Positions 1-37,362 of a DNA stretch of 64,000 nt are shown piece by piece. The stretch spans positions 17,925,653 to 17,989,652 of the forward strand of contig NC_134028.1 of assembly GCF_964204645.1 (NCBI RefSeq), read 5' to 3'. Within the stretch, counting starts at the first letter, position 1, and every line of letters begins with the position of its first letter. Position numbers and translations under genes: made by a program. The notes under the pieces were generated by a model. That model was not told the origin of the DNA and made no database searches. It saw only the letters and a program-made list of their open reading frames with translations. The DNA comes from Tubulanus polymorphus. Lineage: Eukaryota; Animalia; Nemertea.

Positions 1-140
1 TAAAGTGGGAAGCTCCATACATAACGACTAAAAATATCAATTATATTTATCATTTATATTAGAAGAATAAGCAACCGAACTCTCAGGGTTGTAATATAAA
101 TTTCTTAAATATTGTTCTTTAGAGTTTTTTTACCGCCCAT
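1..140 (-). pseudogene. Retroviral-type (rve) integrase remnant with internal deletion and frameshifts; runs off the window edge
   Basis: Minus-strand translation gives KEQYLRNLYYNPESSVAYSS (Polinton integrase N-terminal YYxP motif). It is followed in another frame by IIDIFSRYVWSFPL (rve core IDxFSRY motif). Confidence 0.7.
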
Positions 141-170
141 TTATATATCGTTAATTTTAACTTTATATTT

Positions 171-1349
171 CTAATATTGAATACTATCTAATTGTGAATT
201 CACAATATTTAATTGTGCGTCAGATATAATATAAATGTGCATTTTGAAATTTTTGTCTCCTCTTTTCTTCGCCATGAATAATTGTATTCCATCTTTAGTA
301 TTTTGCAGTTTTTTCCCAGAACCATGTAATGAATCATCCTCTGTTGTTCTAAAATCTAACCATAATGCATATTTATTACCGGTATAATAATCAATTTGAT
401 TAATATTAAAATATTTAATATCAAAATATTTTATTTGCTATTCCTTCGATAGTTATTTCTACTTTTGTTATTTCAGGATTATAATAATTATCAACATTTA
501 TTGCGCCATTAGTATATGTTGCAATGGTAAAAATATTAATATACCTTTAATAGATCTTCTTGGGAAGTTAATATTCTCATTAATTATTTCATCATTTGCA
601 TTAATAGTTACAGTTTTAAATTTATCAATATAATCATATAATAATGAAAATCCTTGATTGTATTGAGTTTGAATTGTGCTAGCAATATTTTCATTAGTTA
701 CTGTGTCATATTCTAAACATATATTTGATAATTTATAACCCATATCTTTAACAACGCTAGATAATACAATTTCATTTACAGGAGCAAATGTCATCTCAAA
801 TATAATATCTTCTTGAATTACATATTTATATAAAGGTGCATTATTATTTATCAATTCAAAGTCTAATGGAATTTTATATTTGCTTCCATAAATCTTTTTA
901 ATCAAATTATCTGTGGCACGAGTTACTATTGCGTCATTAGCTCCTGATCTTAATTTATTATGATTTTCCGATTGAATGCCTTGAAATATCATATTATTTC
1001 TATTTTCTTTAGTTAACCATAAATCTTTATAATGCATAAATAAATTATAATCATCTAATGAGAAAACTGTTTCTGGACCAATCTTTATAGTTAATTTTTT
1101 AATCAAATATCTCCCAACATTATCGACAACATAATTATTATCATGACCAATTACTTTTATATCAGCTGATAAATAAATACTATTTGGAACATAAAAAGTA
1201 TTTTGTGTTTATCTAGGAATTCTAATTTATAAAGTTTCATCGGGATTAATATTTGAAGGATTATGAGTAATTATATGATGCGATCTTTCTGCTTTAATAG
1301 CATTAGATATTCTAGAAATCTTAGAAGGACTTATATAACTCCCACTCAT
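171..1349 (-). pseudogene. Major capsid protein (double jelly-roll, hexon-like), disrupted
   Basis: ATG at 1349 and TAG at 173-171. Includes ORF 498-1106 (YKDLWLTK, LEYDTVTN, NFPRRSIKGILI) and a C-terminus reading LDFRTTEDDSLHGSG...HIYIISDAQLNI. About 390 codons, predicted beta-rich, next to the integrase. Contains stops and frameshifts. Confidence 0.7.
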
Positions 1350-1369
1350 TTATTTAACAAAAAAATTAA

Positions 1370-2806
1370 TTATTTATTTTTAATCATATTCACTAAACCA
1401 AAAATAATAGCACTTACAACTGTAATTAAAAATAAAATAATATGTTCAGCAGCAAAGTTAAGAATATTCCCAGCAGATTTCAATATAAAACCAACAATTG
1501 ATGCAATAATTCCTGGTAAAGCTGCAGCAGATTTTTTAGATAGTTCCCATAAATATTTTCCTAATTTCTTTAAACCATCTTTAACTTTATCTTGTATAGA
1601 ATTATTACCTGGGGGTTTATCTGGTTTATTTGGAGTAGGAGTAGATTTTAAAGCATTTGATATTGCTAAACCAATTGTTGTAAATAACATAGTTTCAGCT
1701 GTTAGAATTGAAAGAATTGTTATTCCTTCTAATTTAAATGATAACTTTATTCTATCTTTCAATGATATTTCAGAATTTGGTTTTATCAACAAATCTTTAA
1801 AAATAACTTTTAATCTATTAATATTATAATCATATGATTTTAATAATTATTTAATTTCTTCTTTCTGTACTTCTAAATTATCTTTTAAATTATTAATTTC
1901 TTTTTCTAATCGTAATTCTTTTTGCCTATACTCTATTTCATAAATTACTTGATGATCTAAATCAGACTTTAATTGTTCTATTTCTTTATTTTTATCAGTT
2001 AATTCTTTTTCTAAAGTTCTAATTTTAAAATCTCTTATATTTTTATCATGCGCAATTTTATCAGATGCAAGTCTTATACTTTTAATTTCTCTAATTGCTT
2101 CAACAGAAAATATATTATTTAAATCTTCTAATTCTTGATCTGCTGCATCAATTAATCCATTCGGTAAAAGTTTTTCAATTGAAACTTTATTTGATTTAAG
2201 TTTACTAGTTTTGGAAGTTATATTCTGTTCAGAAGATGTTTCTGTTTCTGATTTCTTTTTGATTATTTCAAATAATTCATTAATTCTTTGTTTAAATACG
2301 TCTATATTATCATCTATTTCTTTTTGTGTAACATCAGTTATTTCATTACTATTACTTATTCTCTTAATTCTAAATGTTTCTAAATTTTTCAAAGTTGATT
2401 CAACTAATATTTTTTTAAGTTTTGTCCTTTGATTAGTGATATCAATATAATAATCACCTTTCAAACGATAATAACATTTACCATTATCTAAAAATCTTAA
2501 TTTATCTGCTAAAGGTCCAACGTCTTCATCATTTATGTTAAGTTTAGAATTTTCAATTATATATTCTAATTTCTCTATTTTGTTTAAATTATTTAAATCT
2601 TGTTTTACTAAATCTGGATCTAAATTTTCATGATTTAATTGTGATTCTGCATTTTTAATATAATCAGGCATATTTAAATCATTATTATATCCTGGCTCAT
2701 TACCATCATTATAACTTGTTTCACTAAAATCAGGTTGTTGTTCATCAGTTATGCCAGATTCATCAAAATTATCCATTCCAATATCTTCTCCACCTTCTAC
2801 ATCTAT
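1370..2806 (-). pseudogene. Acidic/coiled-coil protein with C-terminal hydrophobic (membrane) segments; ORFs 1847-2776 and 1370-1792 are probably one disrupted gene
   Basis: Only one upstream start motif is present (at 2806, where ATG appears mutated to ATA), and none precedes 1792. Coiled-coil-like K/E-rich region, then ILSILTAETMLFTTIGLAIS, LPGIIASIVGFIL and IILFLITVVSAIIFGLV. Confidence 0.6.
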
Positions 2807-2822
2807 TTATATAATAAAAAAA

Positions 2823-4208
2823 TTAAAATTTAAAATATAATATTCCTCCTATAACAATTCCTATACAAGTTAAAGCTAATTTAGTATTTTCATGGGATTT
2901 ATTATCATTATCAGTTTTAATTATATCATGTTGAATATTATCAGTTTTAATATTTTCTGATGTATTATAATCCGGTTTAGAATCATTATTTAATTTAATA
3001 TTCTTAGTTTTAGTTTCTGTTGATTGAATATGTTTTTTATTTTTTTCACCTTCCATTAATTTTGGAGCGGTAATAATCTTTTTATTTATATCATTTAATC
3101 CAAATGAATTATTTATTGTTGCAGTTTTAATTAGATTATTGTAACCAATTATGTTTCCCATCTTTAGTACTAAATCATTAGAAATAATTAATAGATTAGG
3201 GCCTATACAATAATTTAGTCTTACATGAGATTTATCTAAATGATTTTGATATCTTACAATGCTTTCTGGAATCGATCTATTTTTATCATTATGAATTGAA
3301 TCTTCAAATAAAACTTTGAATTGTTTCTGTGTATCAAATGATGTATTTAAATTTCCAATTATTGGGGATCTTGTTTCAACTTGCGCACCTAAAATACAAA
3401 TCAAATAAGGTCTAATAGATTGATTTATTCTTTGTATACCTGATTTTGTAAAACCTTCATTATTTTCTAAAATGAAATAAACCTAACCATTATTGTTTTC
3501 TTGTTTTAAATTATCATAAAATTTCGGTAATTTAGTGAAATTTAATGTTTCTAAATCCTTAGTTTCTATTTTACCATAACCTAATTTATTACTATAGATA
3601 TTATAAAAGCTATTAGATGGTATGGGAAGTGCACAATATTCTGCAATCTTTTTAGGGCAAGGAAGTGATCTTATTGTTCCAATTTTTGTTCTAAAATCAG
3701 AATTATTTATATCTATATTAAATTCATTACAAGTTTTATGAAACTTTGATAAATTAATATTATTATCTAATTCTTTAAAATATCTAGATCCTGGTAAAGC
3801 GCACTCTAATTCATTTAATATTATTCTGATTTGAAAGTATGTATGAAATCTAAATAAACTTTGAATTAATTTATATTTAGAATTATTCAAATGATCATTC
3901 CAACTAATTCCACAACCTGTTGTTGCACAATAAACAGCAAAATTTAATTGGTTCTGCCAATACTTCATATTAGATTTTAATAACCATTGTTTTTCATCTT
4001 TCAATTTTTTTAAATTAATTAAATATACATGAAATATATTTTCCATCTTTGCATTAAAATTATTAGTTTCAGTAACATAAATTTCTAAATTAGTTAATGA
4101 ATCTAAAACTTCATTTCTATATGTAATATCTTTATTAAAATCTATTGCTGGAATATTATATTTAATTGATTTATTATATTGGAAAGCTTTTGGAAAACTA
4201 TCTACCAT
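2823..4208 (-). pseudogene. Polinton hypothetical protein with C-terminal transmembrane anchor; ORFs 3483-4208 and 2823-3404 joined by a frameshift
   Basis: Single start motif at 4208. Contains WQNQLNFAVYCATTGCGIS and ends in LALTCIGIVIGGILYFKF. Confidence 0.6.
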
Positions 4209-4331
4209 TTATTTAATTAAAAAATTAATTATTTATTAATTCTTTTAATAATTTATCTTGTTCTTTAACTGTTATATGACCATTTAAACTTATTATATAA
4301 TCTAGTGTATTCTTCAATTTATTAATTTCTT

Positions 4332-4658
4332 TTATATTAGTTTAATTTTTTCTTTGTTACTTTTTATATTTAATTTTGAACTTATACAAGTTAAAACACT
4401 TGAACTTAATCCTAATACACCAATCGATATAGCTAAAGGTGTTAATGGACTGAATATTGCTAGAAATGTTATTACAGAACTAATTGTAACCGAACCACTA
4501 ATAATAAGATAATATATAATTTTACTTTTTAAATATTTTTTCTTTTTTATCTTTAAGTCACTTTCAAATTCTAATATTTGTTTTTCTAAATATATTTTCA
4601 ATTTAATTTTATACATATCATGAGGAATAATATCAATACTATCAACTTTATCTTCCAT
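4332..4658 (-). CDS. Small two-TM membrane protein (may extend to about 4228 via a frameshift)
   Basis: Hydrophobic hairpin IIYYLIISGSVTISSVITFLAIF / LAISIGVLGLSSSVLTCI; TAAATG start. Confidence 0.6.
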   Translation of the reverse strand: MEDKVDSIDIIPHDMYKIKLKIYLEKQILEFESDLKIKKKKYLKSKIIYYLIISGSVTISSVITFLAIFSPLTPLAISIGVLGLSSSVLTCISSKLNIKSNKEKIKLI

Positions 4659-4677
4659 TTATTTAGAAAAAAAATTA

Positions 4678-5100
4678 CTAATTAGTAAATTTATATGCTA
4701 CAAATATAACAATAACTGTTCCACCTAAAATCCAAATTATTTCATATTTCTGTTGTTCTTTACTTGGGGTATAATAATCTGATAATTTAGGTTTGTATAG
4801 ATGTAATTTTTCTTTATTGGTTACTGCGTTATATAAACTCATTGCATCATCAACTGATTGAAAATCTCTATGTGAAATCTTCTGATCATATAATTCCTTG
4901 TTAATATAATCCATATAGTTTCTTCGTTTTTCTCTGTATTCTTCTGCTGCTTTATTATATTTCTCTAATGCTAAATTATGTCTTCTTTGTTCTCCTAATG
5001 AACTATTTTTATCAATATGCTTAAATAAATAACCGCCACCAGTAAATGCTAAAGCGTTAACAATTGCCGATCCTATAATAGTTATAATTGGAGAAGCCAT
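4678..5100 (-). CDS. 140-aa protein with N-terminal hydrophobic helix, coiled coil and C-terminal TM
   Basis: Intact ORF MASPIITIIGSAIVNALAFTGGGYLF...IIWILGGTVIVIFVAYKF; TAAATG start. Confidence 0.7.
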   Translation of the reverse strand: MASPIITIIGSAIVNALAFTGGGYLFKHIDKNSSLGEQRRHNLALEKYNKAAEEYREKRRNYMDYINKELYDQKISHRDFQSVDDAMSLYNAVTNKEKLHLYKPKLSDYYTPSKEQQKYEIIWILGGTVIVIFVAYKFTN

Positions 5101-5124
5101 TTATTTAGCAAAAAAATTATGCAT

Positions 5125-5346
5125 TTATATGGGAGGAATATATTTTTGTTTTTCTAAATAATCAATAGTTAAATTAGATAAAGTAACTGCTAACGTTAAT
5201 TTTAAAATATCATTTATATCAAATCTATCAACATTAACTCTTCCCATTTTAAATACTTTTTTTAATACCATTGAATAACCAACAGTTCCAACTGATAGTA
5301 AGGCGCCATTATATAATCCAGTTATTATCCACTTATTATCACTCAT
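5125..5346 (-). CDS. 73-aa hydrophobic protein
   Basis: Intact ORF with two hydrophobic stretches; TAAATG start motif. Confidence 0.6.
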   Translation of the reverse strand: MSDNKWIITGLYNGALLSVGTVGYSMVLKKVFKMGRVNVDRFDINDILKLTLAVTLSNLTIDYLEKQKYIPPI

Positions 5347-5504
5347 TTATTAATCAAAAAAAATTACTATCTTCAAAATATTTAGTTATCTTAGTGATGA
5401 TTAATTCAACATTTATTTCATTACTACTTCATGATTATCATATATTTCGGTTAATATGTTTTTAATATCATCTATGATAAAATCTTCATCTAATTCATAA
5501 AATC

Positions 5505-5705
5505 TTAAGATTCTCTAATTAAATTAGTAATCTTTTCTACATTTAAAGTTTCTTTATCTATTGTTGTTTCATACTCAAATGTTGTTTCATTAGAAAATGC
5601 AATATTTTTGATATGTGTAATTACATCATTAATGTTAAATTTCATTTCTTTCTCCCGTTTAAAATCAAATCCAAAACATATACTCGGTCCAACAGTTATA
5701 TTCAT
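5505..5705 (-). pseudogene. Hypothetical Polinton protein, probably truncated by a premature stop
   Basis: TAAATG start motif; coding-like acidic sequence continues after the stop toward about 5365. Confidence 0.45.
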
Positions 5706-5721
5706 TTATATAATGAAAAAA

Positions 5722-6474
5722 TTACTCTTTACATCTTATAACTAATTCATAAATTACAGGAAAGTTATTCAAATCAATTAAATAACCATTATGATTTCTT
5801 ATTTCTAATTTAAAATTATTGAAATGTGGAATACAAGTTTTAAAATCACATTCAGTTAAATTATAATTTATTTGCGTTCCAAATTGTTTAACATTCTTTA
5901 ATGGTAAAATATTTAATATACTAGAATTACAAATTGTATCTTTAGTTGCTTCGAATGTTTTTGTAGGATCAATTAAATTGCATTAATATAAAAGTGTGTA
6001 ACAGGTATTAAGTTTGACCTTCTGCGTATGCTGTAACAATATCTGGGTTAATTCCTAACAGTTTACCTAACGATTTTCTTACTGTAAATTTAAATTGTTC
6101 GTCATTAGCTAACCTAATCTTTATTTTATTAGAACTATCACTTTTTAAAATTCTAATACTAAATCCGGAATCACTTCCTAATTTAGCTCGAGCTTTTCTA
6201 TTAATTTCTTGTGCTAATGTATCTAAATTATATAATCCTGGTTTTAAATATATAAAAAACCATTATTCCTTTTTTTGTAAAAGATTGAAAAAATTAAATG
6301 TTCTAGACTTTTATCCGATATATTGTAAAATGAGTTACATAAACTTATATTTACTAATTTTAAATCTACACAATTCTTAAATTCTCTATCTAATTGAACT
6401 AGTAAATTATGTGATTTATAATTTGTAAGTTTTCTAGAATCAACAAATATTCTGTATTCTTTTAATTCTACCAT
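5722..6474 (-). pseudogene. Minor capsid protein (penton-like, single jelly-roll), frameshifted
   Basis: N-terminus IFVDSR...LVNISLCNSFYNIS, internal PGLYNLDTL, C-terminus LEIRNHNGYLIDLNNFPVIYELVI with stop at 5724-5722. This pattern is typical of Polinton pentons; about 250 codons. Confidence 0.7.
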
Positions 6475-6544
6475 TATTTATAACATAAAAAAATTACCGC
6501 TCTTTACTTAAAAAATTAATTTTAATAAAATTTTTCCTTAATAA

Positions 6545-7399
6545 ATGGATGAGAAGATAGCATGTGAAATTTGTGGTGAACTTCTAAGAAAAAGTAATAT
6601 GGCTCGACATATGAAAAAACATGATGAAAATTATAAACCCCCTAAACTAAACTGTCCAAAATTTAATAAATTATTCTCAAGAAATTATGTTAAAAAACAT
6701 TCAGAGAAGTGTAAAATTAATGGCGCAACGGCTAATGTTGATAGTAATGAAAGTAATAGTAATTCTGTTGAAGTTGAACCTGAAATTAATTGGAAAAGAC
6801 CTTTCTTATTCTATGACAAGGATAATATAAAAGATCATTTCTGCGAGCCTTGTCGAATAAAATATAACCCTGAAAATATAGAAGATTGGGAGAATCATCA
6901 ATTTCGTAAAGTACATATAGATAAAATTTCTAATAAATTTGAAACTGAATTCAATGAAAGAAAAAATAGTTTATTAGAAAAAATAAAATATGAGAAAACG
7001 TTACCAGATAATAAAGAAACAGTTGAAAAGTTAGAAAAACAATATAATGAATTAACAAGAAAAACATATTATTGTAAATATTGTAAATTGATTATTACAA
7101 CAAGCAATCTACATAATAGAACAATAAAACATAAAGAAAACGTAAGAAAATACCAAGAGCTTAATGAAGATCTATTACCAATAAATTATAAACGAAAATG
7201 TCCACAATGTAGTTATGCGACCTTAAGACAAGAAGGTACTGTGTTATTTTGTAATGAATGTGGATGGCAAAAGAATTTATGGGGTGAAGAAAAAACTAGA
7301 GATTTTCTCATAGAACCAAAATTAAATTATCTTGATGAAATTTTTAAAATATTTTCTATAGAAGATCATACACCAGAATATATGCAATGGCTTGAATAA
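6545..7399 (+). CDS. Multi-zinc-finger protein (C2H2, U1/matrin-like fingers, C-terminal C4 zinc ribbon)
   Basis: CEIC..HMKKH; CEPC..HQFRKVH; CKYC..HNRTIKH; CPQC..CNEC. Confidence 0.75.
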   Translation: MDEKIACEICGELLRKSNMARHMKKHDENYKPPKLNCPKFNKLFSRNYVKKHSEKCKINGATANVDSNESNSNSVEVEPEINWKRPFLFYDKDNIKDHFCEPCRIKYNPENIEDWENHQFRKVHIDKISNKFETEFNERKNSLLEKIKYEKTLPDNKETVEKLEKQYNELTRKTYYCKYCKLIITTSNLHNRTIKHKENVRKYQELNEDLLPINYKRKCPQCSYATLRQEGTVLFCNECGWQKNLWGEEKTRDFLIEPKLNYLDEIFKIFSIEDHTPEYMQWLE

Positions 7400-7867
7400 A
7401 TGAAAATAATAGAAAATAAAAATGGTGAAATAACTAAAAAAGATATTATAAAAACAATTATTCCATCAACATTTAACACAAAACAAAAGAAAATGTATTT
7501 ATATTTATTATTTAACGATTATCATGAAAAACCTAAATTAACAGAAGAAGATATGGAAAATATAAAAAAAAAATTCAAACAAATATTAATGTATCATTTG
7601 GAAAATAGACTAACAGATTCAATTAATTATGAATTCTTTTTAAATAAGATTGTAAATTATTTGAACATCGATATTATAATTCCATTTGACGAATTAACAA
7701 ACAAAAGGAAACAAAGAGAGCGAGATGAAATGTGGAATAATATAACACGTTATTTAAATGAGAAAAATGAAATGGAAGAACCTACACAAATTATACAAGA
7801 ACAATTAAATGAAAATGAAGAAGCCAATAGTGATTTCGAGTATGATGATATTGATTTTCTGTTTTAA
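7400..7867 (+). CDS. Hypothetical protein with acidic tail; same frame as the upstream zinc-finger ORF, so either a separate gene or a read-through
   Basis: TAA-ATG junction at 7397-7402; 155-aa open frame converging on the pPolB stop. Confidence 0.55.
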   Translation: MKIIENKNGEITKKDIIKTIIPSTFNTKQKKMYLYLLFNDYHEKPKLTEEDMENIKKKFKQILMYHLENRLTDSINYEFFLNKIVNYLNIDIIIPFDELTNKRKQRERDEMWNNITRYLNEKNEMEEPTQIIQEQLNENEEANSDFEYDDIDFLF

Positions 7868-10800
7868 TGGCCATAAGGTAATGTTTTTATACCATCATCT
7901 AAAATATGCCTTTTATCATCAAATTGATTCAAACTAGTTTTTTCAACTTCATTAATGTACATCTCGTGATCTTCTGATCTTAAACAATTCATTTTGTGTT
8001 TCATTACATTGAGTTATATAAACACTTTATATAATCTTGGAATTCTATATGTTTATCAACCACATGTTTTGTTATTCCTTTTAACTTTTTAGCATTTTTT
8101 TTCATAATCTTATGTTCTGTAACTATACATTCTACTTCTTATCCCAACAAATTCAATCATTTCATCACCCCCTAATTCATCTTTAAACTTACCAGGAATC
8201 TTTTTATTATCATTGCTAAATAGTTCATGATCTTTGGGATAATTGCTAAAATCAAAATGATGTTTTAATGTTTTTAAGTCTTTTGTTATGTCATTTGTCT
8301 TGATTTTTAGTATGTAGGCGTCCGTATTTTTGGCTATTAATGGAAATCCACAGTTAAATGTACCATCTTCAGTTGATAAATCATAAACATAATCTGTTGG
8401 GTTATATATTTCAAATAAATCTTTAACTTCTTCAGTTAAATCTTTTTCTGTGTGGCTTAAATTAAAGCAATTTGGTTTAGATTTAATCAATCCAATATTC
8501 ATATTGAAGCCTAATGAATTACATAATATATTTAACCCTGAAGTAGCAACTTTTCCTTTCTGTGCAAAGGTTATCTTTTTATCCTTTGTAAATTTTTTAG
8601 CACCATCTGCTGCGTAGAATCCAATGAAGAACCATAATCTGGAACTATCTTTTCTTTAGTTGAAGTATTATTTTTAACTATTGCATGAATATAGAATTCA
8701 TCATTATATTTTATAGCAAAATCTTTAGGATTGTTTACAAGTATTCTATAAACTGCTGTTGATTTCATATGATCCATGATTCTAAATGTTTTATGTGAAT
8801 AAACTTCTTCACAGAATTTCTTAATTCTTTCTAATAATTTTAAGTCTTGATTGCATAAATACTTACAATATTTATTACCCCAAACATAATTATACACACC
8901 TGCTGAACCATCTCCCATGAAAAATCCTTTGATAAAATATTCTTTTTCTTCTAATGTTTCGGGTTCTATGTTATAAGTATTATCAGTAATTTCATCAAAT
9001 GACATATGATTCATTCTTTGGAAAAATCTTTTATGTAATAATTCATCTAGAATTTTTATATCAGTTGGTTTTATTTCATCACCATTTCGTTTAATTAAAC
9101 TATGATCTTCTGTAACATCTACAAACCCTAATTTAGTTCTAAATCTATAGATTTTCTTATTTGTTTTATGCCTAATAATATTCTTTAATTTTTTCCACCC
9201 ATTTCTTGTCCAAACATCCATTTATTTGTATTAATTCTTTTTCACCATATGAAATATAACAGTCATTTTGTTTTGGAATTATTTCTGAAATTCTTCTTAT
9301 CAATATTTTATCATTACATTTTAATAATATTGGGGTGTCAGCTGTTACAGAATCAAAATATAATATTTCAATATACTTTTCCCCAAAAAGTGGTTGTAAA
9401 ACATTATAATAAAAATCATACATTAATAATTTTGATACTTCTAAAACAGTTGAACCAATGAATATAGGTTTATTAAATTTCATTGACGTTCTTTTTAATT
9501 TAACTGCTGTTAAATAATCTTCAAATCTTTTATTTCCTAAATGTCTAGGACTTGATTGTAAATGTCTTAATCTTTCAGAATTATTTACTAATTCAATATC
9601 ATTTCTATTTCTAATATTTTCACATGTTTTACCATAAAAACTATTATTCATTAATTTGAAGAAATCTTTTTCAAAATCTGTTTTTGATATGGTTCTCTGT
9701 TGAGTATTGAAATCTATATATTTTTCTAACAACTTCGATTGATTAAATTCAATATATCTATGTACTTTCTTTAATTTCATTCCTTGTTTTAGATAAAATT
9801 TTAACATTCTATAATGAACAATATAATTGTATTTATTTTGAGTAAGTATTAATTTTTCTGTAAAAACATGATCTTTCGGTTTTATTTTCTTCTGGTATTC
9901 ACTTAAATAACTGTCATCTACAGTTAAATGTTCTGGGCAATAAGGTAAGTTTCTTGTTTTAAACTTTATATTTTCAGGATATTCTAAATCAACTACAAAG
10001 AAATAACCAATTGGTGCTTCATCTTCTAAACTCATAATTGCGCTTTCCCAATTAGTTTAATCATCATTTTCAACTTCTGTTAATATAAAATTTTTATATG
10101 GTTGAGGTTGCATCATTGCCCAACCATATAAATTATTGGCGTCAATATATAATAATTTATATTCATCATTTGCTTTAAAACACCTATCTCCCATAACACC
10201 ACTAATTCCACCTCTAATTGATTTTTCAAATAATAAAACCATATCTGGTTCTTTTAATAAATCTAATTCTACATTTGTATATTTTAAACCACATTGCCGG
10301 GGTAAACCAGAACTAGAGTAGCAATAACAAGGATCAACATTAAAATGATTCAAATTAACTTCTCTAAATTTTTCAAATATGTCAGCCAATATCATAACAT
10401 CTGATTTTGAATATAAATCAACTAATTCACCATGATTTTTCATCTTAAAATGGTTCCAAATATTTAATGTTCTATTAAACACTTCGTTTTTCACATACTC
10501 CTCTTTTAATTGATCATAAAATTGATCTTTTAATAATTCTGTTACATTAAAATCATTGTGTGTTTTATAAAATGAATAAGGAATTGCGCCTTTATATCTA
10601 AATAATTTAAAATCTTGTTCATTTGGATAATAATATCGAGTTATAACAAAATCATTATCAACTAAACTTTTTGATAAATTATCTAATGAACTTGCTAGAA
10701 ATCTATAAGAATCTAAAAATCTAATGCAACCAAATTGAAATGAAATATAATTTTCAGATGTTTTAGCTAATAGTTTAAAATCATATTTTCTTACATTTAC

Positions 10801-12891
10801 ACCATTCAAAGCATTATATTCTTCTATTTCTTGATTAATTGTGCCCAATTTCCTTGATAATTGTTTTATAAATAGATGGGTATCATAGCCTGATAAATTA
10901 TGAAATAATATTGGAACGAAATTTACTTTTTTAGCTTGTAAATTACAATCTTCATGAGCAGCTCCACGATATTTTGAATTTAAATGATCATGATCTCTAA
11001 CTTTTTTATCAAATGAATAAAAACGTTTTTCACAATAACAACAATGAGTTGCATAATTAAAATCAATTTCATCTTCTTTTGTCATAACTATTCTTTTATT
11101 TTTGTTTAATAATATTGCAAAATCACTTTCTAATTCAATCATTTTATCACAAAAATCATTAACTACATTTTCACCTCTAAAAGAAATATATTGACTTTCA
11201 TATAATTCAGGATAATTTGATTTTATATAAATTCCATAAGCAGCAGCTCTTTGATGAACTTTTTTAATTGTATTTATAATTGGTGGGTCTTGTGTTGTGT
11301 CTTCATTTAATTCATTTCCTTTATCCATTGATTTTAATAATTGCTTTTTGTTATATATTTCTTTTCTATCTTGATCAGTTAATTCTTTATTCAACGATTC
11401 GAAATCCCCATAAATTACAAATGGAACAATATTCTTAAATTTATGATTAGTAAATTTCAATTTATAATCTTTTTCTGTTGGCATTATTAATTTGCAAAAA
11501 TCTTTATTATCACATAATTCTTTATGTTTTAATAATGTATTCTCAGTCATAAATTTAGATAAACATTTTCTACATAGATAAATTTTATTATGGTGATCAC
11601 TTTCTGTTCTAAAGAATAAATCAATTTGTTTTAACCACATATAATGTTCATTTTCATCTTTTTTGTAATATAACAAATCTATAGCATTTTCATCATCATA
11701 ATATTCTGTTAAATATAAAGCTTCCAATGTATAATCTTTAATATTTTCCTCTTTTGTCTTTGGTAATTGCATTAATTCAAATACATTAATTTTTAAATTA
11801 TTAACTTTTTCTATTTTAGGAATCATTTTTATAGTTACTGGATATTGATCAATTTTATATAATGTTTCATATTTCCGGTAATTTGTTATTCTAAAACTAT
11901 GCGTCATATCTTCTGTTGGGTGTAAACAACTAATAATTGACCATAGAAAACATTTATTATCTTCATTTTGAACATTTATTACTGCTTTTGTTGTAAATGG
12001 TAATTTAATATAAGATGATGCTTTAATATCCATTTCTGTTGTAAAGTTTGAATCATTTTTAAACATTTTATTACTTTTTGATGTTTTATTCCTTTTTGTA
12101 TTGTAAACATTTAAATCTAAATATATAATTTAATTCAATGTTAAGCCAGAACCATCAAAATATCTTTCTTCAATATGACGTTTAAATTCATTAAATATTT
12201 TTTCTAACTTCTCTTTTATTTGTGTTTTTGAAATAATTTCTTCAGAGTGTGTTTGAATATTATAATTCATTTTTTCTTCTGACTTTATAAAACTTACCTT
12301 CCCAGAGATACTAATTTTTGGATATTCAACATCTGTTATCAAATCTAGTATTTTTTCTATTATTTCATTAAATTTACTATAATCTTCTATTGTTGTTCCT
12401 TTAAAAAATCTAAATATAATAGCTGCAGGACCAATTTTACTATGTAATGTTTCTAAAATTTCAATTGTATCTTTTATTTCTAGTGAATCAATATAATTTC
12501 TAACATTTTCCATGTAAGGTTTATTTAAAATGGATTTAGTTTTTGAAGTTGGTTTTTTTACTTGTTGAGGTTTATCATCAAAATAATCTTTTCCTAAAAC
12601 ATTATTACTCAAATTTTGGCGGTGTTTCTGTGATTCGAGATGTCTATTATAATTCCTTTTTACTATAAATTCATTACAAACTTCACATTTTATTTCATTC
12701 ATATTTTCTAATCTTTCTTTTCTTTCATTGGAATTTTCTGGAGTTTCAAAATCTATTACATTTTTTATATGATTTTCAGTTTTTTCATGTCGTGATTTTT
12801 GGGATTTATCGATGTATTTTTTACAATATTGGCAATAATATTGATTTTTATTAACATTATTGTTTTCTGGCTGGTGTTCATTCTCCCCCAT
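7864..12891 (-). pseudogene. Protein-primed family B DNA polymerase (pPolB) with N-terminal zinc fingers, OTU-like protease, EndoVII-like insertion and an intein; several stops and frameshifts
   Basis: ExoI YGDFES, ExoII FHNLSGYD, FLDSYRF, motif A YIDANNLYGWAM, motif B KLMNNSFYGK, motif C YFD[intein]TDA, then GKFKDE, MYSY, KG and C-terminal DDKR..TLPYGH. OTU-like DNKCFLWS...EHYMW; EndoVII-like CCYC..RDHDH..YRGAAHEDCNL (10939-11043). Confidence 0.95.
8326..9351 (-). mobile_element. Intein with LAGLIDADG (DOD) homing endonuclease, inserted in pPolB motif C (Pol-c-equivalent site)
   Basis: Block A SVTADTPILL starts at 9351 directly after YFD. Block B FVDVTEDHSL (TxxH); block C FIKGFFMGDGS; block E FFIGFYAADG; blocks F/G YVYDLSTEDGTFNCGFPLIAKN end at 8326, with Thr as the +1 residue. 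Two frameshifts, near 9222 and 8640. Confidence 0.95.
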
Positions 12892-13024
12892 TTATTAGGA
12901 AAAAAAATTACTTGTGGTGATGAGTGGTGTCTCGACCGCTCGACCTCTGGTATGAAAGCCTACTTTCCCAATTACTCACATTTTGTATAGATTTTTGTGA
13001 ATTGATCACGGTCGGCCTTTCTGA

Positions 13025-13921
13025 CGGTTTCTTCAAATTGTAGAAATGCAGAAATCGGTGTGTTAATTTTACGGACAATAATACTAAATTGAATTTTACT
13101 TTATCCAGCTCAATTTCAGTAATCATTTCTATTATTCTTTGTTTTTGAAATGATGCAGACGACATAGCCAAATTCACAATCGTTATGAGCCACGATGAAT
13201 GATTTACAATTAAATAAAAAAACTGAGATTTATGCGCTGCTTCTAAAGAATTCAAAACCCAATGCCGAGAGGCACAAAAACAAAAAAAGTGCCGACAACG
13301 GTTTAGAAATAATGTAGATATTACCTTACTCACAAAAAAAAATCAAATCATATAAGATTTGGAAGGGGGCAATATTTTTATGCATAACCTGCAAATGTAA
13401 TACTCAGCGTCTCATAGATAATCATTTACCGACGAAAAAGGAAACTCATCATATCAAAGATGTAACACTTGCTGTGGTTCAAAAGAATCGTTGAAAAATC
13501 GGAAGATCTTTTTCTCTAATTAGACACCCAAACCAATTTGCGAGCGTTTCCATCTACAGCTTAACAGATAAACTTGTGGTAAATAAATAGCCCGCTGATG
13601 AGACAAAAATGTTTATTTTCTCAGCAACCAAATCGTAAACGAGCAAGCAGAGTGAGTGAGTTCGTAGGTCAAATTCGTTTGGATGCAACTGTAGTAAAAA
13701 TATGTTTGCATGCAGCTTATTTAGTCCCAATCGTTTGGTGGTAAGCTTTTTATAATCGGATTGGCTACAACATTTGGTTTGTGAAAATATCCGATCGTGA
13801 AAATAAACCACAGACTGGTTACGACTACATATGCAGCTCTGATGAAACCTTAACATTATCCGTAAAATTAACACACCAATTTTGTTTAGCGTTTCTGCAT
13901 TTCTGCGTTTTGAAGAAACCG
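13025..13921. mobile_element. Non-autonomous Mutator-like element (MITE)
   Basis: Imperfect TIRs CGGTTTCTTCAAA...TTTGAAGAAACCG with shared GGTGTGTTAATTTTACGGA. Exact 9-bp TSD CCTTTCTGA at 13016-13024 and 13922-13930. Confidence 0.85.
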
Positions 13922-14418: not shown

Positions 14419-17400
14419 CAGGGTTCAAAGCGGTCATGGATTTCCTGGAAAGTCATGGATTCAAAAATTGTCAAATCCAGGCCTGGAAAGTCATTGAATT
14501 GCCCCTAAATGTCCCTAGGTCATGGAAAGGTCATGGAATTGCATTTCCATAAACCCTGTGCATAGGATACAGAACCCTGACACATGTTTAAAGGCCTATA
14601 TCCAACAACATGCATCATTGTGTATTCCAGACTGGGACCCACTTAATTGATGAATAATACATATCCTAAGCCCTGGGGACCTAAGTTACTATAAATTGCA
14701 CTCTGAATGCATTGACCATTGAAGTATACCATTGAAGAGGTGTGTTAATTATGATGGCTCATTCCTCAATTCAATCTTCTATTGTAAAGGCTTGCAGTCT
14801 AAATAATGTTAGTCTTGATAATTGCTTGAATTGTAATGAAATTGGTAATTAGCAGTTAAATTAGTAGCGTTTCAGTGTTCAGACTCTACTTATGCCTACC
14901 TATAACATATATAACTGTGATTAATTTCTAAATGACATAAACTGGGTCTGTTAGAACAATGCATTTCACATGGTTAATTTATTAAATATTTCATTCTGAA
15001 ACTAAATAATAGGCCTAGCAAAACTGGGCCTTTCATTAGATATGTATTGCATCTGCATGAGGAAACATCCATCAGAGTTCAGTCCTTAAAGAAATATTCA
15101 GTATGCCCGGAAAGTGTAGATTTAAAGATTCCTGGCTTAATCATGAGGATTATAGTCCTTGGATAGGAAAAACAAAATCAGAATATGAAGCCAGATGTAT
15201 GAAATGTCTTCGGAACTTCAGCATCGCAAATATGGGAGAGGCTGCTTTGAAAAGTCACATTAAAAGTAAACTCCATGTGTCATCGATGACCTTGGCTAAT
15301 TCAACAAGAGGTATTCCTAACATGTTTTCGAGTAATACAACAAGCAGTATTTTGACAGCAAGTAATCGTCAAACATCAAGGTAAGTTAATCATTAATATA
15401 CAGAATTGTTAATATTTTACAATTGAATTTATTACAACTATGTTAGTTATTACAATTATTATTTTTATTTTGCAGGCCAATAATGGACTCATATATTGCA
15501 AAAGATACTGTCCTGAAATCCGAGATAATTTATGCTTTGAATATGATAAACAATCACCACAGTTACAATTCCTGTTCTGGAATGAATGACATACTTAAGG
15601 CATGCTTTCCAGACAGTCAAATAGCCGAGATGTTTTCACTTAGTCAACAGAAAGCAGCATATCTAGTTCGTTTTGGTATTATGCCACATGTAAAGGATCT
15701 AATGAGACGGAAAATCAAAGACCAACAATACGTGTTACTATTCGACGAATCATTGAATCAGCGTACGCAAACTAAACAGTTGGATGTGTTAATTAGGTTC
15801 TGGGACCATGATGTAGTAAGGTCTTCGTATTACGGTTCAGACTTCATTGGACGAGCGACTGCAAAAGATATGCTGCATTCATTTATGGACACATTTGGAG
15901 ATCTCAATTACTCCAATCTTTATCAACTGTCCATGGATGGTCCAAATGTGAATTGGAAATTTTATGAATTGTTGCAACAAGAAATTTCAAGTATGTGTAA
16001 TACTCGAAAGTCTATTCTGAACATAGGCAGCTGTGGCTTACATGTCATGCATAATGCCTTCAAAGCCGGCGACCATGCTACTGACTGGGATTTGGAGTCA
16101 CTTCTTATCAACCTGCGTTATTTGTTCAAAGATGCTCCTGTCAGAAGAGAAATGTTTACTGAGGTCACTGGTAGTCAGAAGTTTCCATATAAATTTTGCT
16201 CTACTAGGTAAGTGAATTGGATTTTAGTTGTTATTAAAATACATGTACTTAATTAGGCAATCCAAATTACCCTGGTTATCAATTATTGTTTTATCTCCTT
16301 GCCGTATGTTAGCAGTTAAACTCAACATTTCTATTTTTGTTTTAGATGGCTGGATAACCTGCCAGCTGCAGAACGTGCGATTGAACTATGGCCGTATATC
16401 ATAAAATTCGTGGAGCACGTTCAAACTTTGAAAAAGGCTAACATACCGACATCGAAACCATATTTATACATAAAAGACTTAGCGTCATCTGATATGGTAT
16501 TGCCGAGACTGCATGCGTATGTATATATTGCAAAAACAGTTACACCGTTCTTAACCATCTACCAGACGGACAGGCCAATGCTGCCATTTTTGGCGGAAGA
16601 CATACATAATGTTCTCCGATTACTGATGAAGCGATTCATCAAAAGTGATATAATTCGGGAAGCAGATACTTTCACTAAGTTGATCAAGATAGATACAAAA
16701 AAGGAATCGAATTATTGCGTTCATTCTAAAATCGACATCGGATTTATCGCGGGGGCAAAAGTTAAGGAACTTATTGCAGTTGGAAAAGCAAGTCAGCGCC
16801 AGTTTCTCGATCTGAGAATGAACACTCGAAAATTTCTTATCAGTTTAGTGGATAAAATAATAGCCAAAGCGCCGATCCAATATTCTTTGGTTAGAAATAT
16901 GGTATGTTTAAATCCGAACGAGCTTGCCGCTAATTGTGACCAAAGTCGCGCTCAGTTCAAGAGAATAATAAGTTTATTGTCGAGCTCGAATCATATAGAT
17001 GATTCGGATTGTGATACCGTGTTAAACCATATGGACGAATTCATCAATAGCGTAGTCGTAAAAACTAAATCGGATTTTTTGAGCTTCAACAAAAAAACAG
17101 ATCGATTAGATACTTTCTATCATAAACATATGCAATGCAATTCATCATTTGATAAATTATGGTCAGTTATAAGCAACCTGCTGTTATTATCTCATGGGCA
17201 GGCTTCTGTAGAGAGGGTTTTCGGTAAATAAGCAGATCGAGGTTGAAAACCTAGCTAATGAATCGTATGAAGCTCAAAGAATGATTGTAGACCACATTCG
17301 ATCCGTAGGTGGTGTGCTGAAAGTACAAATTACCAAGGAGTTACTTCTTTCCGCATCTCAGGCATATTCGAAGTACAAGGCCTATCTGGAGAAATGTAAG

Positions 17401-17979
17401 GCTGATTCAGAAAAAAGTGCTAGGGGTATTAAGCGTAAAGCCGAATGTGACGAATTGGAGAAATTAAAACGAAAAAAGAAATTGCTTGAAATTGACATCG
17501 AGTCGCTCACCACCTCCGCAAATAAGTTTATTGAGCAAGCAGAACAGGCAACAGCTTTAAAAGATGTTCGTCCACTGATTACGAAATCAGTGTCATTCCG
17601 CAAATCGGCCAATGATAAACGTGCAGAAATTAATGACATTTCAGAACTTATTGATAAAAAACAAGAAGCACTAAAAGGACTTTAAGATGTTACTTTGATA
17701 TATCAATGCTTTACCGGTTTAGGTTTATGTAAATAAAAGATTAATCATTTGTCTGCACCATGAAGTATATGAGTATATAATTATGAAATAAAATTAATAT
17801 TCTAACAAATTAATAATTTGTCTTTTTAACGTTTGTTCTTTTATAGTTAAGTTTGTCGTTTCATGGTCATTCCTCGGGGTTTCAGATATGAAATTAGGGT
17901 TGGAGAGGTCATTGAATTGGGATTGAAAAGGTCATGGAAAGTCATTGAATCAGATAGGTCATGGAAGCTTTGTACCCTG
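14419..17979 (+). mobile_element. Full-length hAT-superfamily DNA transposon with 6-bp TSD
   Basis: TIRs CAGGGTTCAAAGC / GCTTTGTACCCTG; subterminal GTCATGGA/GTCATTGA repeats at both ends; TGATAG duplicated at 14413-14418 and 17980-17985. Confidence 0.9.
15103..17685 (+). CDS. hAT-like DDE transposase; exons 15103-15380, 15476-16207 and 16346-17685; one 1-bp frameshift near 17217
   Basis: N-terminal BED-like finger (W..CMKC..H..SKLH), FDES, SMDGPNVN, CGLH (CxxH), TRW across exon junction 2, and ASVER. Two GT-AG introns keep the frame. Restoring one G gives ERGFSVNK and joins ORF 17281-17685. Confidence 0.88.
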
Positions 17980-23520: not shown

Positions 23521-24337
23521 ATATTCACGTCATGACACTAGCTATAGGCCTTCAGGGTACAGCTAGCAGTTGTCCTTAAGGTTCAGTCTGGGAACAGCGT
23601 CAAGACACTCATGTTGAATCATGGATGTGAAGCTTGTACCCCATGGGCAATGGACAAAATGATCTTCAACCTTGTATATAACTATTTTCCAAAATCTCGA
23701 TGTATTTAATTAGGCAGCCAAGGAAATTTACCCAAATCTTTCGCTTGCCGGTTCAGACTGAATGAAAGATTGTTTGGATGAACCGGAACCGCCCCGTATA
23801 ATTTCCAATTATGTACCGGTACTTATTTCAACAAACAAAAAATTCTGTTAACTCGACCGCCGATCACACAACTATATCTGTACTTCGATTTCCGATTTCA
23901 AAATCAAACCCCCTGTTTCGCTCCCGGCAAATCAAACGAAATTTACCAGCCAAATAAATAAATAACGGGGCAATCCCCATTTTAAGATAAAAAAGAATAA
24001 ATAGATAGACTGTTTTTTATACCTGATCTAATCAGTCTTGTTTGTAATATAGAAAGTATTCAAAGAAAGCAGCTGAATATTCCCCCCATATGTCCAGCTT
24101 TTTGACCACTTCTCCATCCATCTAATTTCAGTAGATTTCTATGTTGAATGATGGACTACTGATTTAAATGGTCATTACTAGATTGTGAGTATTATATTTC
24201 TTTTCTTCTTCAGTCTCATATAAGTAATAGGGAATAAGTTGTTTCAAGCCAAAGGTCGAAGGGTTCAAAAAATAAATTCTCGCACACTCGAATTCATTTT
24301 CCGACCCTTCAACCTTTAACTCGAAACAACTTATTCC

Positions 24338-25259
24338 TATGGTGGCTGATAAGGGCCATAGCGTAAAATTCCTGGTACGTAAATGAGGGCGCCAGAACGC
24401 CAGAACGCCAAAACGAAAAAAAAAAATTTCTCTAAAAGTTCGTTTTGGCGCGCCCCCGCCAAAACAACGAAAAACGTCGAAATTTCTCTAAAAGTTCGTT
24501 TTGGCGCGCCAAAACGGAGAAGATTCCGTTTTGGCGCCCCCGCCAAAACGAACTTTCATTTTGGCGCCCCCGCCAAAACCAAGTTTAAACCACGTAAAAT
24601 AATTCTATGTATACGTAAAATATTTTCATATATGCAAATTTATGCAAATTACACACAAGATCAACGCGCCAAATTGAAAAATAATTTTACTGTGGTTGAA
24701 TGCTTGTTTTGGCGGGGGCGCCAAAAAGGAAATAACCGCGCCAAAACGAACTTTTCTTTGTTTTGGCGCGCCAAAACGAACTTTCAGAGAAATTTCGACG
24801 TTTTTCGTTGTTTTGGCGGGGGCGCCAAAACGAAAGTTCGTTTTGGCGGGGGCGCCAAAACGGAATATTCGTTGTTTTGGCGCGCCAAAACGAACTTTCA
24901 GAGAAAATTGGACGTTTTTCGTTGTTTTGGCGGGGGCGCCAAAATGAGGGTTCATTTTGGCGGGGGTGCCAAAACGGAATATTCGTTGTTTTGGCGCGCC
25001 AAACCGGACTTTCAGAGAAAATTTGACGTTTTTCGTTGTTTGGGCGGGGGCGCCAAAACGAAAGTTCGTGTTGGCGGGGGCGCCAAAATGAAAGTTCGTT
25101 TTGGCGGGGGCGCCAAAACGGAATTTTCTTTGTTTTGGCGCGCCAAAACGAACTTTTAGAGAAAATTGGACGTTTTTTTTTCGTTTTGGCGTTCTGGCGT
25201 TCTGGCGCCCTCATTTACATACCAGGAATTTTACGCTATGGCCCTTATCAGCCACCATA
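24338..25259. mobile_element. GC-rich foldback element inserted in the left TIR of Polinton 2
   Basis: TIRs TATGGTGGCTGATAAGGGCCATAGCGTAAAATTCCTGGTA... / ...CCCTTATCAGCCACCATA. 6-bp TSD TATTCC at 24332-24337 and 25260-25265. Arms are built of TTTTGGCG/CGCCAAAA units. Confidence 0.92.
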
Positions 25260-25352
25260 TATTCCCTATTACTCTTAAAATATTCATATGAATATGAATA
25301 ACTTCTAAAATCAATTTTAATAAAAAATTTGTTATTAAAATGGAGAGTAAAC

Positions 25353-26066
25353 CCAATAAGGGTAAAAAAATATTCTAAAGCGAGAGGTTTCAGCGAACTC
25401 TAACTCTTTTTTCAATTTTCAATATAAAAAGTAACGAGTAATTAACGAGTGAAATAATGCATATTTAAAACAGTGAATATTTATATTTATATGTGTTAGA
25501 TTCTTATTTTAAACATAAAAAGTAACGAGTAATTAACGAGTGAAATAATTCATATTTAAAACAGCGAATATTTATATTTACATGCGTTAAATTCTTATTT
25601 TCAATATAAAAAGTAACGAGTAATTAACGAGTTGAAGAAAATATCAATTTTAATAAAAAAATGACTAATAAATGAATGAACAGATACTACAATTCCAATA
25701 AGGGTAAAAAAATATTTTAAAGCGTAAGGTTTCAGCGAACTCTAAAAAAGTAACGAGTAAATAACGAGTTGTTAGAATTAAAATAAATTTTTAAACATAA
25801 AAAGTGTGAGTAAAGTGTGAGTGAAATAATTCATATTTAAATCATTGAATATTTATATTTATACGTGTTAAATTCTTATTTTCAGTATAAAAGTAACGAG
25901 TAATTAACGAGTGAAATAATTCATATTTAAAACAGTGAATATTTATATTTATATGCGTTAAATTCTTATTTTATGTTTAAAAGTAATGCGTAATAAACGA
26001 GTTGAAGAAAATATCAATTTTAATAAAAAAAATTACTTATAAATATGAATGAACAGATACTACAAT
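25353..26066. repeat. Subterminal tandem duplication (about 343 bp) made of 91-bp units with GTAACGAGTAATTAACGAGT cores
   Basis: CCAATAAGGGTAAAAAAATATT at 25353 and 25696; cores near 25431, 25522, 25613, 25750, 25893 and 25983. The first copy ends with a duplicate of the ORF start ATGAATGAACAGATACTACAATTC. Confidence 0.85.
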
Positions 26067-26614
26067 TCAAAGATATCGATTTACATGAATTAGAAAAATA
26101 TTTTACAATTAAAAATTTCATTCCTATTAAAGATTTGATTAAAACTGCGCGTCTTCGTTTTCAAGTGAAAAATATTACTGAATTAGTGTTTAAAAATCAT
26201 TATCTAATAATAGAGTTATCGAATGATAAAGATAAAATCTTATTCAATACAATAATTCCAAAATTCACAACATTTGGCGAAATAGTTAAACATTTAATAA
26301 TTACAGATGAAATGCAATCACTTTTTAATAATGAAAATTCACATAAAACATTATTTTTACACTTACGTTATTGCCCATTCAGAGAATGCTATGTTATGTT
26401 TTTCAGATTACAAGAAAAGAGATTCATCCCCGACATTCCAAATGAAAAATCATTTAAAGACATAGGTACTCAATGTGATTTAGACAATGAAAAATCATAT
26501 AAAGATGTTGGGATTCAATGTAACTTAGACAATAAAATTGATACACCTAAATATGAACCTAATGAAAAAATGTTATGTAATTGTGGAAAATATTATACTC
26601 AAAGAAATAATTAA
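26045..26614 (+). CDS. Hypothetical Polinton protein with two LC8-binding-like repeats and a C-terminal zinc finger cut by a stop
   Basis: 189-aa ORF; KDIGTQCD and KDVGIQCN repeats; CNCG..TQRNN*HHLKSKYH. Confidence 0.6.
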   Translation: MNEQILQFKDIDLHELEKYFTIKNFIPIKDLIKTARLRFQVKNITELVFKNHYLIIELSNDKDKILFNTIIPKFTTFGEIVKHLIITDEMQSLFNNENSHKTLFLHLRYCPFRECYVMFFRLQEKRFIPDIPNEKSFKDIGTQCDLDNEKSYKDVGIQCNLDNKIDTPKYEPNEKMLCNCGKYYTQRNN

Positions 26615-26813
26615 CACCATCTTAAATCAAAATATCATAACTCAAAAATAATAATTCAACTCTAAATATTCAAAATAAGATATTTCAAATTAATTTTTTT
26701 CTTAAATAAATGTATGATTCGTTGAACTATTTCACCAAATGTTGTGAATTTTGGAATTATTGTATTGAATAAGATTTTATCTTTATCATTCGATAACTCT
26801 ATTATTAGATAAT

Positions 26814-29800: not shown

Positions 29801-30033
29801 GATTTTAAATATTCTTTATAATATCTTTTATCACTGAATGATTGATTACACGTATCACATTTATATATTTCTTTTTCATTCTTTAATTCATCTAATTTAG
29901 TTTCTAATATATCATCTTTATATTCTAATTTCAATTTATTCTCTAAATGTGTTTTAGTTTTATTGTGTCTTGCTTTTTTAGATTTATCTATATTAATTTT
30001 ACATGTCGGACAGTAGTACTTATTTGCTTCCAT
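26814..30033 (-). pseudogene. pPolB of Polinton 2; frameshifted, with motifs B and C deleted and the C-terminus truncated
   Basis: Same domain order as element 1: zinc fingers, DDKCFLWA, YGDFES, RDHDH..FRGAAHENCNL, FHNLSGYD, YIDANNLYGWAM. NQGMILKK is fused directly to KMYSYKT..KKLKGITK. Confidence 0.92.
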
Positions 30034-30098
30034 TCTAATAACAAATTTTTCATTAAAATTGATCTTATATTATTCAAAATCTATATCATGACATCATT

Positions 30099-30404
30099 CT
30101 AACCTTTATATATGAAGTAGAAATCACCTGAACATAATTCTTCTAGATCTTCACTTGATAATCTATGAAACCTATCTGGTAAATATGTTCTGAATTTATA
30201 TTTATTTCCCTTTAAGCCTCCATATGCTAAGTGAATAACTAATTTATCTCCATAGTTATTAGTAACTGTATCAATATTTGCAATTAGATATTTCTTATGA
30301 ATTGTTAATTCTGTTAAATTCTTAAATTTATAATCTACTGATTTGACATTTGAAGTATCTTTTATTCTATCTAAGAATTCACTGTATATTTGTTTACTCT
30401 CCAT
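30099..30404 (-). CDS. 101-aa protein upstream of pPolB, possibly an OB-fold ssDNA-binding protein
   Basis: Intact ORF starting inside the TIR; beta-strand pattern YLIANIDTVTNNYGDKLVIHL...RTYLPDRF. The function is inferred only. Confidence 0.5.
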   Translation of the reverse strand: MESKQIYSEFLDRIKDTSNVKSVDYKFKNLTELTIHKKYLIANIDTVTNNYGDKLVIHLAYGGLKGNKYKFRTYLPDRFHRLSSEDLEELCSGDFYFIYKG

Positions 30405-37268: not shown

Positions 37269-37362
37269 GTAAGTAGTAAAGTAAGACCACGAGAATAAAT
37301 GGATTTTAAGAGATTTGTAAATGATTTCAGTCATCATATTCAAAATGGTGTTTTATTTTTAG

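Follow-up and report, generated by a model that had tools for sequence, protein, structure and literature searches.

A decayed intein interrupts the catalytic motif of a protein-primed DNA polymerase (pPolB) of a Polinton-like element in the ribbon worm Tubulanus polymorphus. The stretch analyzed, referred to as the window, comprises 64,000 nucleotides of contig NC_134028.1 (assembly GCF_964204645.1, positions 17,925,653 to 17,989,652 of the forward strand). On its minus strand, a 1026-nucleotide insert (9351–8326) splits polymerase motif C into YFD (9360–9352) and TDA (8325–8317). The insert is a broken motif-C intein with a LAGLIDADG homing endonuclease, whose intact relatives are predicted to self-splice and likely to home into intein-free Polinton copies. 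LAGLIDADG inteins at this site (pol-c) are a known kind; what is new is the host class, the protein-primed Polinton polymerases, and the location in animal-type genomic DNA. An intein of this type had been proposed from the DNA letters alone (the original prediction). Its boundaries and blocks were all found again, and the anatomy, the intact relatives at the same site, and the trees agree on a pol-c intein in a Polinton-type pPolB.

Anatomy and decay of the insert

The window intein harbors the canonical residues of a class 1 intein, namely Ser1, the TxxH of block B, the Asp of block F (in VYDL, 8388–8377), and the terminal Asn (in Lys-Asn, 8331–8326), as well as Thr+1 in the extein. The penultimate His is replaced by Lys, which the original prediction regarded as a departure from the canon. 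Lys is in fact the commonest state among related motif-C inteins: 92 of 175 extracted, that of Mimivirus included, end in Lys-Asn and 52 in His-Asn (two of the 175 extractions are false), so that a penultimate His is no strict requirement for class 1. The candidate view of this Lys as the sign of a defect was rejected on these counts.

The reading frame of the insert is broken into three pieces by frame changes near 9220 and near 8635, the two frameshifts already predicted, and several stops are also present. A frame continuous with the host protein, absent from the window copy, is present in the intact relatives P0001, P0144, P0146, and P0160. The polymerase itself contains in-frame stops, missing from the original prediction, at about 12132, 10059, and 8112, with more breaks downstream. 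On the basis of the frame changes in the insert and the stops in the polymerase, the window copy can make neither protein and is a fossil, incapable of splicing or cutting, with a broken polymerase. Not all of its breaks appear to be family-wide, because raw reads from other copies (run X5, same species label but another study, 12% of the run used) have insertions or deletions relative to the window copy near some of them. The GC content of the insert (~25–28%) is near that of the upstream polymerase (23%), and thus the insert is not compositionally foreign.

A protein search with the middle piece of the intein yields 386 proteins at E ≤ 0.001, the best of which (E 7e-71, 62% identity) is an intact pPolB with the same intein; the resemblance is therefore not due to chance. 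The top three matches are pPolBs carrying the same insert (62, 48, and 47%), while the others among the best 120 of the 386 carry PF00136 and include the Mimivirus PolB (46%). With the Hint profiles proposed earlier as a check, the middle piece alone scores 19.2 for Pfam Intein_splicing and 15.1 for TIGR01445, below the curated cut-offs of 35.8 and 24.5, whereas the intact relative P0144 exceeds both (37.7 and 32.9).

An intein family in protein-primed polymerases

A set of 552 proteins was assembled by searching proteins three times and representatives once, with the best 120 or 150 matches of each search, and by looking up three clusters. Among these, 28 cluster representatives match both pPolB and this intein and fall into five groups at 60% single linkage; 28 is a lower bound for clusters, and the host genomes may be far fewer. 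Intact examples are P0001 (1693 residues), P0144, P0145, P0146, P0524, and P0160. Although the intein groups are only 39–56% identical to each other, Ser1, both LAGLIDADG Asp-Gly motifs, the block-F Asp, and the terminal Asn are kept in all 14 full-length pPolB inteins, as are Thr+1 in 13, TEDH in 11, and a penultimate His in 10. PF14528 scores above its cut-off in P0001, P0146, and P0393. The record of P0393 is a metagenome-assembled genome (MAG) of a clam symbiont, and the protein probably represents host DNA within the symbiont bin.

In the AlphaFold model of the natural relative P0003, most 10-residue blocks of the intein have pLDDT confidence values of 85–98. The ten best PDB matches of this model are all endonuclease-bearing inteins (E 5e-16 to 2e-10), and the matches include TliVMA, PhoVMA, PI-PkoII, PI-PfuI, and PI-SceI, followed by I-DmoI (root-mean-square deviation of ~3 Å). 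The modeled fold suggests that the pPolB inteins share a Hint plus LAGLIDADG architecture with VMA-type LAGLIDADG and archaeal pol-c inteins (PI-PkoII, PI-PfuI, PI-SceI). They differ from these in having 10–15% identity in the structural alignment, with a weak sequence match to PI-PkoII (E 0.0045), and in their hosts, which in the known cases are cellular, RNA-primed, or unrelated proteins. A Hedgehog/Hint or bacterial intein-like domain, which would lack an endonuclease and cleave a host enzyme instead of rejoining it, was also considered and rejected, as the endonuclease and both splice junctions are present and empty alleles exist.

P0160 harbors the same intein in a second pPolB type, which has a strong PF03175 match, no endonuclease-VII match, and a nuclease-like motif that is presumably VSR. 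The P0160 intein shares 39–46% identity with the others, whereas matches to the polymerase sequence flanking it reach E 6e-4 at best.

Among the best 150 of 5921 matches in a search of 50% representatives, the fragments P0264 and P0362 were the sole additions, other carriers probably being hidden behind other representatives. In IMG/VR, no locus was found with the middle piece, none with a pPolB-type N-junction pattern, and no relative with P0001. A pattern for the first endonuclease motif hit six loci, one in IMG/VR and five in metagenomes, and no pPolB matched at any of them. In a side observation on the RNA-primed PolBs, P0038, P0040, P0045, P0061, P0074, and similar proteins of 680–800 residues start ~65 residues before their motif-C intein, which suggests a lineage with a split PolB gene.

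Filled and empty alleles

The insert is a discrete unit, as alleles lacking exactly this segment occur both in sequences of the same species label (X5 reads and an X2 contig) and in the pair P0124/P0127. In eighty X5 reads spanning the site, exactly 1026 nucleotides net are missing: 32 skip 1031 nucleotides with 5 other letters between, and 48 skip 1035 with 9. Five further reads skip 1032 nucleotides, the letters between not being shown, and one X2 contig skips 1063 with 37 letters between, again a net 1026. The X5 depth is 212 inside the insert and 689 and 531 alongside; as a very rough estimate, one in three related copies is thus filled.

Both allelic states are also found in the cluster of P0144 (136 members). 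Of its 15 listed members, seven are full-length and filled, each on its own contig (95 kb to 1.0 Mb), and five are empty. Filled and empty members are 97–98% identical overall where measured. In four gap-free pairs, they differ at 8–9 of the 20 residues adjoining the site but at only 2–4 of 390 further upstream; a fifth pair with an upstream indel was excluded from the 390-residue count. This heaping of differences at the site, as read from the protein sequences, fits co-conversion or target escape. The filled P0124 and the empty P0127 share 99.2% identity and do not differ in their flanks, a pair that fits ongoing invasion and precise loss alike.

As a separate observation, some empty alleles of the P0144 cluster (P0251, P0253) have YTD-CDS in place of YxD-TDS at the catalytic motif, while others have YFD-TDA. 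These are two distinct diverged forms of the target site within one 97–98% identical family.

Origin of the intein

Trees were built with FastTree (185 and 330 rows) and with IQ-TREE under LG+G4 without mixture (63 of the 330 rows, among them 27 nearest, 18 random, and 6 motif-B inteins as outgroup). False extractions and near-duplicates were left out (13 rows in the 185-row tree), archaeal inteins were not included, and the window intein was placed by its unchanged pieces only. All pPolB inteins, including that of the window, form one clade, with support of 1.0 (185 rows) and 0.983 (330 rows) in FastTree and 100/100 in IQ-TREE. When rooted on motif-B inteins, this clade nests among the motif-C inteins of RNA-primed PolBs in 200/200 bootstrap trees, and the latter are monophyletic in 0/200.

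The intein aligns with giant-virus-type PolB inteins at 37–43% identity, in the case of Mimivirus over the full length, while the polymerases do not align. The intein has therefore moved independently of its host gene. The C-terminal signature pattern of the pPolB inteins matches 11 IMG/VR loci, 9 of them named as giant-virus MAGs; an RNA-primed PolB C-terminus is seen in 10 of the 11 and a pPolB in none. The same pattern has 0 matches in GTDB genomes, and a similar signature is present in the PolB of ChoanoV1. The original prediction had the intein pass from a giant-virus PolB into a pPolB. The kinship it implied is borne out, in that the pPolB inteins group with RNA-primed motif-C inteins, those of giant viruses included. 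The direction of transfer is only favored, and a giant virus as donor to the Polinton is favored by the tree but not proven. Its comparison with the Mimivirus intein likewise withstands the full-length alignment, but the trees reject Mimivirus as the nearest relative.

In the main pPolB lineage (14 rows), the intein and polymerase trees have 8 of 11 splits in common. This agreement points to the intein as an old resident of Polintons that made no recent jump into this animal, and in place of the single event originally envisaged stands an old, monophyletic family that has largely co-diverged with its polymerases. The intein of P0160, which lies inside the pPolB-intein clade with a support of 95/91, appears to represent a second jump into a different pPolB type, although its position in the clade is unfixed.

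The host polymerase and its element

The host gene matches PF03175 with E 4e-12 over 12129–10060. Two Polinton genes are seen in the window, a protein-primed PolB (PF03175) and a double jelly-roll capsid protein (weak PF16903). The capsid piece has Atlas feature matches of 0.95–0.97 to viral capsid clusters, with a recognition value below the Atlas threshold. The features are collected in Table 1.

Table 1. Features of the intein, its host polymerase, and the surrounding element (window coordinates)
Feature	Position	Strand	Remarks
LAGLIDADG homing-endonuclease intein, pol-c allele, broken	8326..9351	-	Frame changes near 9220 and 8635; reads exist without exactly these nucleotides
Intein block A with Ser1, in SVTADTP	9331..9351	-	
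Intein block B, TEDH	9102..9113	-	
First LAGLIDADG motif, GFFMGDG	8907..8927	-	
Second LAGLIDADG motif, GFYAADG	8602..8622	-	
Intein blocks F and G, VYDL ... GFPLIAKN, terminal Asn	8326..8388	-	
pPolB N-terminal part: zinc fingers, exonuclease with endonuclease-VII-like insert, motifs A and B	9352..12891	-	PF03175, weak PF02945, tblastn with P0001
pPolB C-terminal part, begins at Thr+1	7867..8325	-	Broken near 8112 and beyond
Double jelly-roll major capsid protein piece, same element	501..1208	-	PF16903, E 7e-4; gene goes on leftward in another frame
AT-rich (about 23% GC) Polinton-like element, multi-copy in the species	1..12976	.	Left end beyond the window, right end approximate

The depth of X5 reads over the element is 139–1077, compared with about 30 at 14.4–15.5 kb, and read identities range from <90% to >99%. 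The element is a multi-copy, diverged family in the species. Contiguity and decay, rather than bridging reads, suggest that it is integrated in the animal chromosome. The clearest host gene in the window is TMEM26 (PF09772, E 3e-60), found in pieces at 36693–38088 on the plus strand; it is presumably an animal gene, and its presence on the contig points to an animal host. The original prediction had the intein enter an animal germ line together with the Polinton. The animal-type gene on the contig speaks for the animal setting; the host at entry may have been an animal or a protist.

A second decayed pPolB is located at 26814–30069 on the minus strand, with 72.5% DNA identity to the first over 2.9 kb. 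It aligns with P0001 to residue ~1045 and resumes at ~1600, such that motif B, motif C, and the intein site are missing; the gap could reflect ordinary decay or a scar left when an endonuclease cut there. Nested inverted repeats and a 114-nucleotide tandem array (24338–25259 and 24262–30558) adjoin this second Polinton fragment, the inverted arms being 24262–24337/30483–30558 and 25286–25352/30392–30458. Beside the right end of the first element, 13735–13822 is a high-copy repeat fragment, where read depth is very high and loose ends number in the thousands. Transposase-like open reading frames occupy 15061–17685 on the plus strand; the two that were scanned have no Pfam match, and the group presumably resembles a hAT-type element.

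Relation to known systems

The Mimivirus PolB intein, as described in the consulted parts of its report (Ogata, Raoult and Claverie 2005, PMC549080), occupies the same site after the first Asp of motif C, YGD/TDS there and YxD/TDx here. The sequence extracted from Mimivirus (1053–1403) equals this published pol-c allele. Its 351 residues are in the length class of the pPolB inteins (333–354), with which it shares Ser1, the block-B Thr and His, two LAGLIDADG motifs, and Thr+1, and the Lys-Asn end is common to the Mimivirus and window inteins. What distinguishes the present case from those of Mimivirus and other Nucleocytoviricota is the host, a pPolB of an integrating Polinton that is unalignable outside the motif, and the setting, animal-type chromosomal DNA with many filled and empty copies. 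In the same parts of PMC549080, homing between very distant PolBs was deemed implausible.

Polintons/Mavericks (adintoviruses, Starrett et al. 2021, PMC8502044) are likewise AT-rich, multi-copy, and decaying in animal genomes, and have a pPolB and a double jelly-roll capsid; the words intein, homing, and LAGLIDADG are absent from the main text of that paper. HNH and VSR nuclease inserts are known in Polinton pPolBs (Jeong et al. 2023, 10.1101/2023.08.22.554363), with neither LAGLIDADG nor homing mentioned in the portion consulted, and invasion by inteins is suggested as the source of such nuclease inserts in one sentence of Krupovic et al. 2024 (PMC11071308). The window pPolB bears a nuclease insert as well (endonuclease-VII-like). 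The HNH and VSR inserts sit at other places in the protein, and no splicing domain is described for them in those portions, whereas the present insert has all parts of a Hint-LAGLIDADG intein, interrupts the catalytic motif, and has empty alleles.

Eukaryotic inteins were recorded in fungi, algae, some protists, and four giant-virus families including Iridoviridae, with no animal or Polinton entry in the pages consulted (Green et al. 2018, PMC5784728). From the inclusion of Iridoviridae, inteins were already known in large DNA viruses that infect animals. A term search of Gallot-Lavallee et al. 2023 (PMC10710043) returned no Polintons or animals, and the searched portions of PMC12220804, PMC5718144, PMC3671162, PMC13768754, PMC4104785, and 10.1101/299784 held no further case. 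No description of an intein within the pPolB of a Polinton or in the genome of an animal was thus found in the searchable literature, as the original prediction had supposed; InBase, Repbase, subscription journals, and the supplementary tables of PMC5784728 and PMC10710043 lay outside the search.

Proposed mechanism and alternative explanations

The splicing and homing steps of the proposed mechanism rest on established intein chemistry, as set out in the consulted parts of PMC7765530. In an intact relative, the precursor would be translated, and Ser1, the block-B Thr and His, the block-F Asp, the terminal Asn, and Thr+1 would carry out canonical splicing, restoring YxD-TD, the polymerase active site that would otherwise be missing. 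Once free, the endonuclease would cleave motif C in the DNA of empty copies, which would be converted when the break is repaired with a filled copy as template. Many filled and empty Polintons per host genome would keep empty sites in supply and the endonuclease under selection; such a steady supply would explain the intact endonuclease motifs across 39–56% identity. The history is proposed to begin with a single ancient entry into a pPolB, probably from a giant-virus RNA-primed PolB by a rare non-homologous event in a common host cell. Co-divergence with one pPolB lineage and at least one jump to the second, unalignable type would have followed, and the intein would have reached animal chromosomes as cargo of integrating Polintons.

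Several points weigh against this scheme. The window copy can neither splice nor cut, and the activity of the family is a prediction. The polymerase of empty elements could copy filled ones, so that an expansion of filled elements is no proof of splicing. Many of the intein-pPolB clusters may derive from the same few genomes. Neither a position of the pPolB inteins as sister to all RNA-primed motif-C inteins (p 0.214) nor one of the P0160 intein outside the rest (p 0.376) is rejected by the approximately unbiased (AU) test, and the nearest sister of the pPolB inteins shifts between trees. The 8 of 11 common splits are also predicted by plain vertical descent with repeated precise loss. As to the element, no Pfam match to an integrase, packaging ATPase, or protease was obtained among its open reading frames scanned inside the window, its left end lying outside. 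Terminal inverted repeats or a target-site duplication are likewise not among the repeats listed for the window, which contains one of the two element ends, and no read bridging element and host DNA is shown.

Splicing without homing, in which the intein is inherited with its Polinton lineage and empty alleles result from its precise loss or from recombination with lineages that lack it, is unlikely. It would account for the splits common to both trees, including all those at 100/99 in the polymerase tree, for the similar pairwise identities of intein and extein within the main lineage, and for the identical flanks of P0124 and P0127. It sits poorly with the retention of both endonuclease motifs in 14/14 full-length inteins across 39–56% identity, as idle homing endonucleases decay (PMC7765530, consulted parts), with the concentration of differences at the site in the P0144 family, and with the presence of the intein in an unalignable pPolB type. 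Slightly less likely still is a donor other than a giant virus, that is, sister lineages from an archaeal, phage, or protist PolB, or a transfer from Polinton to giant virus. The C-terminal signature common to giant-virus MAG inteins argues against it, as does the Mimivirus intein, which is 24% identical to its best archaeal match (PMC549080, same parts) and 37–43% to the pPolB inteins. The AU test tolerates the grouping that this origin calls for, the RNA-primed motif-C inteins as one clade without the pPolB inteins, but the bootstrap trees recover it in 0/200; the unstable sister group and the lack of archaeal pol-c inteins in the trees leave it some room.

Least likely by far is a location outside the animal chromosome, with free-virus or symbiont DNA joined to host sequence by assembly. 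Numerous breaks disrupt the polymerase and capsid genes, more damage than a virus that still replicates could tolerate, and a second decayed copy lies 17 kb away. The identities and depth of reads from another study, together with TMEM26 and transposon-like repeats on the same contig, also speak for integration. The want of bridging reads counts in favor of an extrachromosomal origin, as do runs X6 and X7, of the same species label, which gave no reads aligned to the window, a result that is not proof of absence. The proposed mechanism, with splicing, homing, and a probable giant-virus source, is considered probable and is the reading preferred here.

Implications

The family indicates that a pol-c intein made the move from RNA-primed polymerases to protein-primed ones and is now carried by animal-type DNA, where it records that Polintons and, probably, giant viruses once met in the same cell. 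For the study of Polintons, inteins of this kind split pPolB marker alignments and can hide such elements. The family is also a source of new inteins and endonucleases with an evolutionary history in eukaryotic cells. Within a single genome, the population of filled, empty, and possibly resistant alleles can be counted, making the theory of the homing cycle testable in an animal. In a broader view, for which the chances appear about even, animal germ lines would harbor working splicing inteins: an old giant-virus-type family would reside in the Polintons of several invertebrate lineages, with the whole homing cycle of invasion, target escape, decay, and re-invasion running within single genomes, and its endonuclease may also cut the polymerase genes of competing Polintons or giant viruses.

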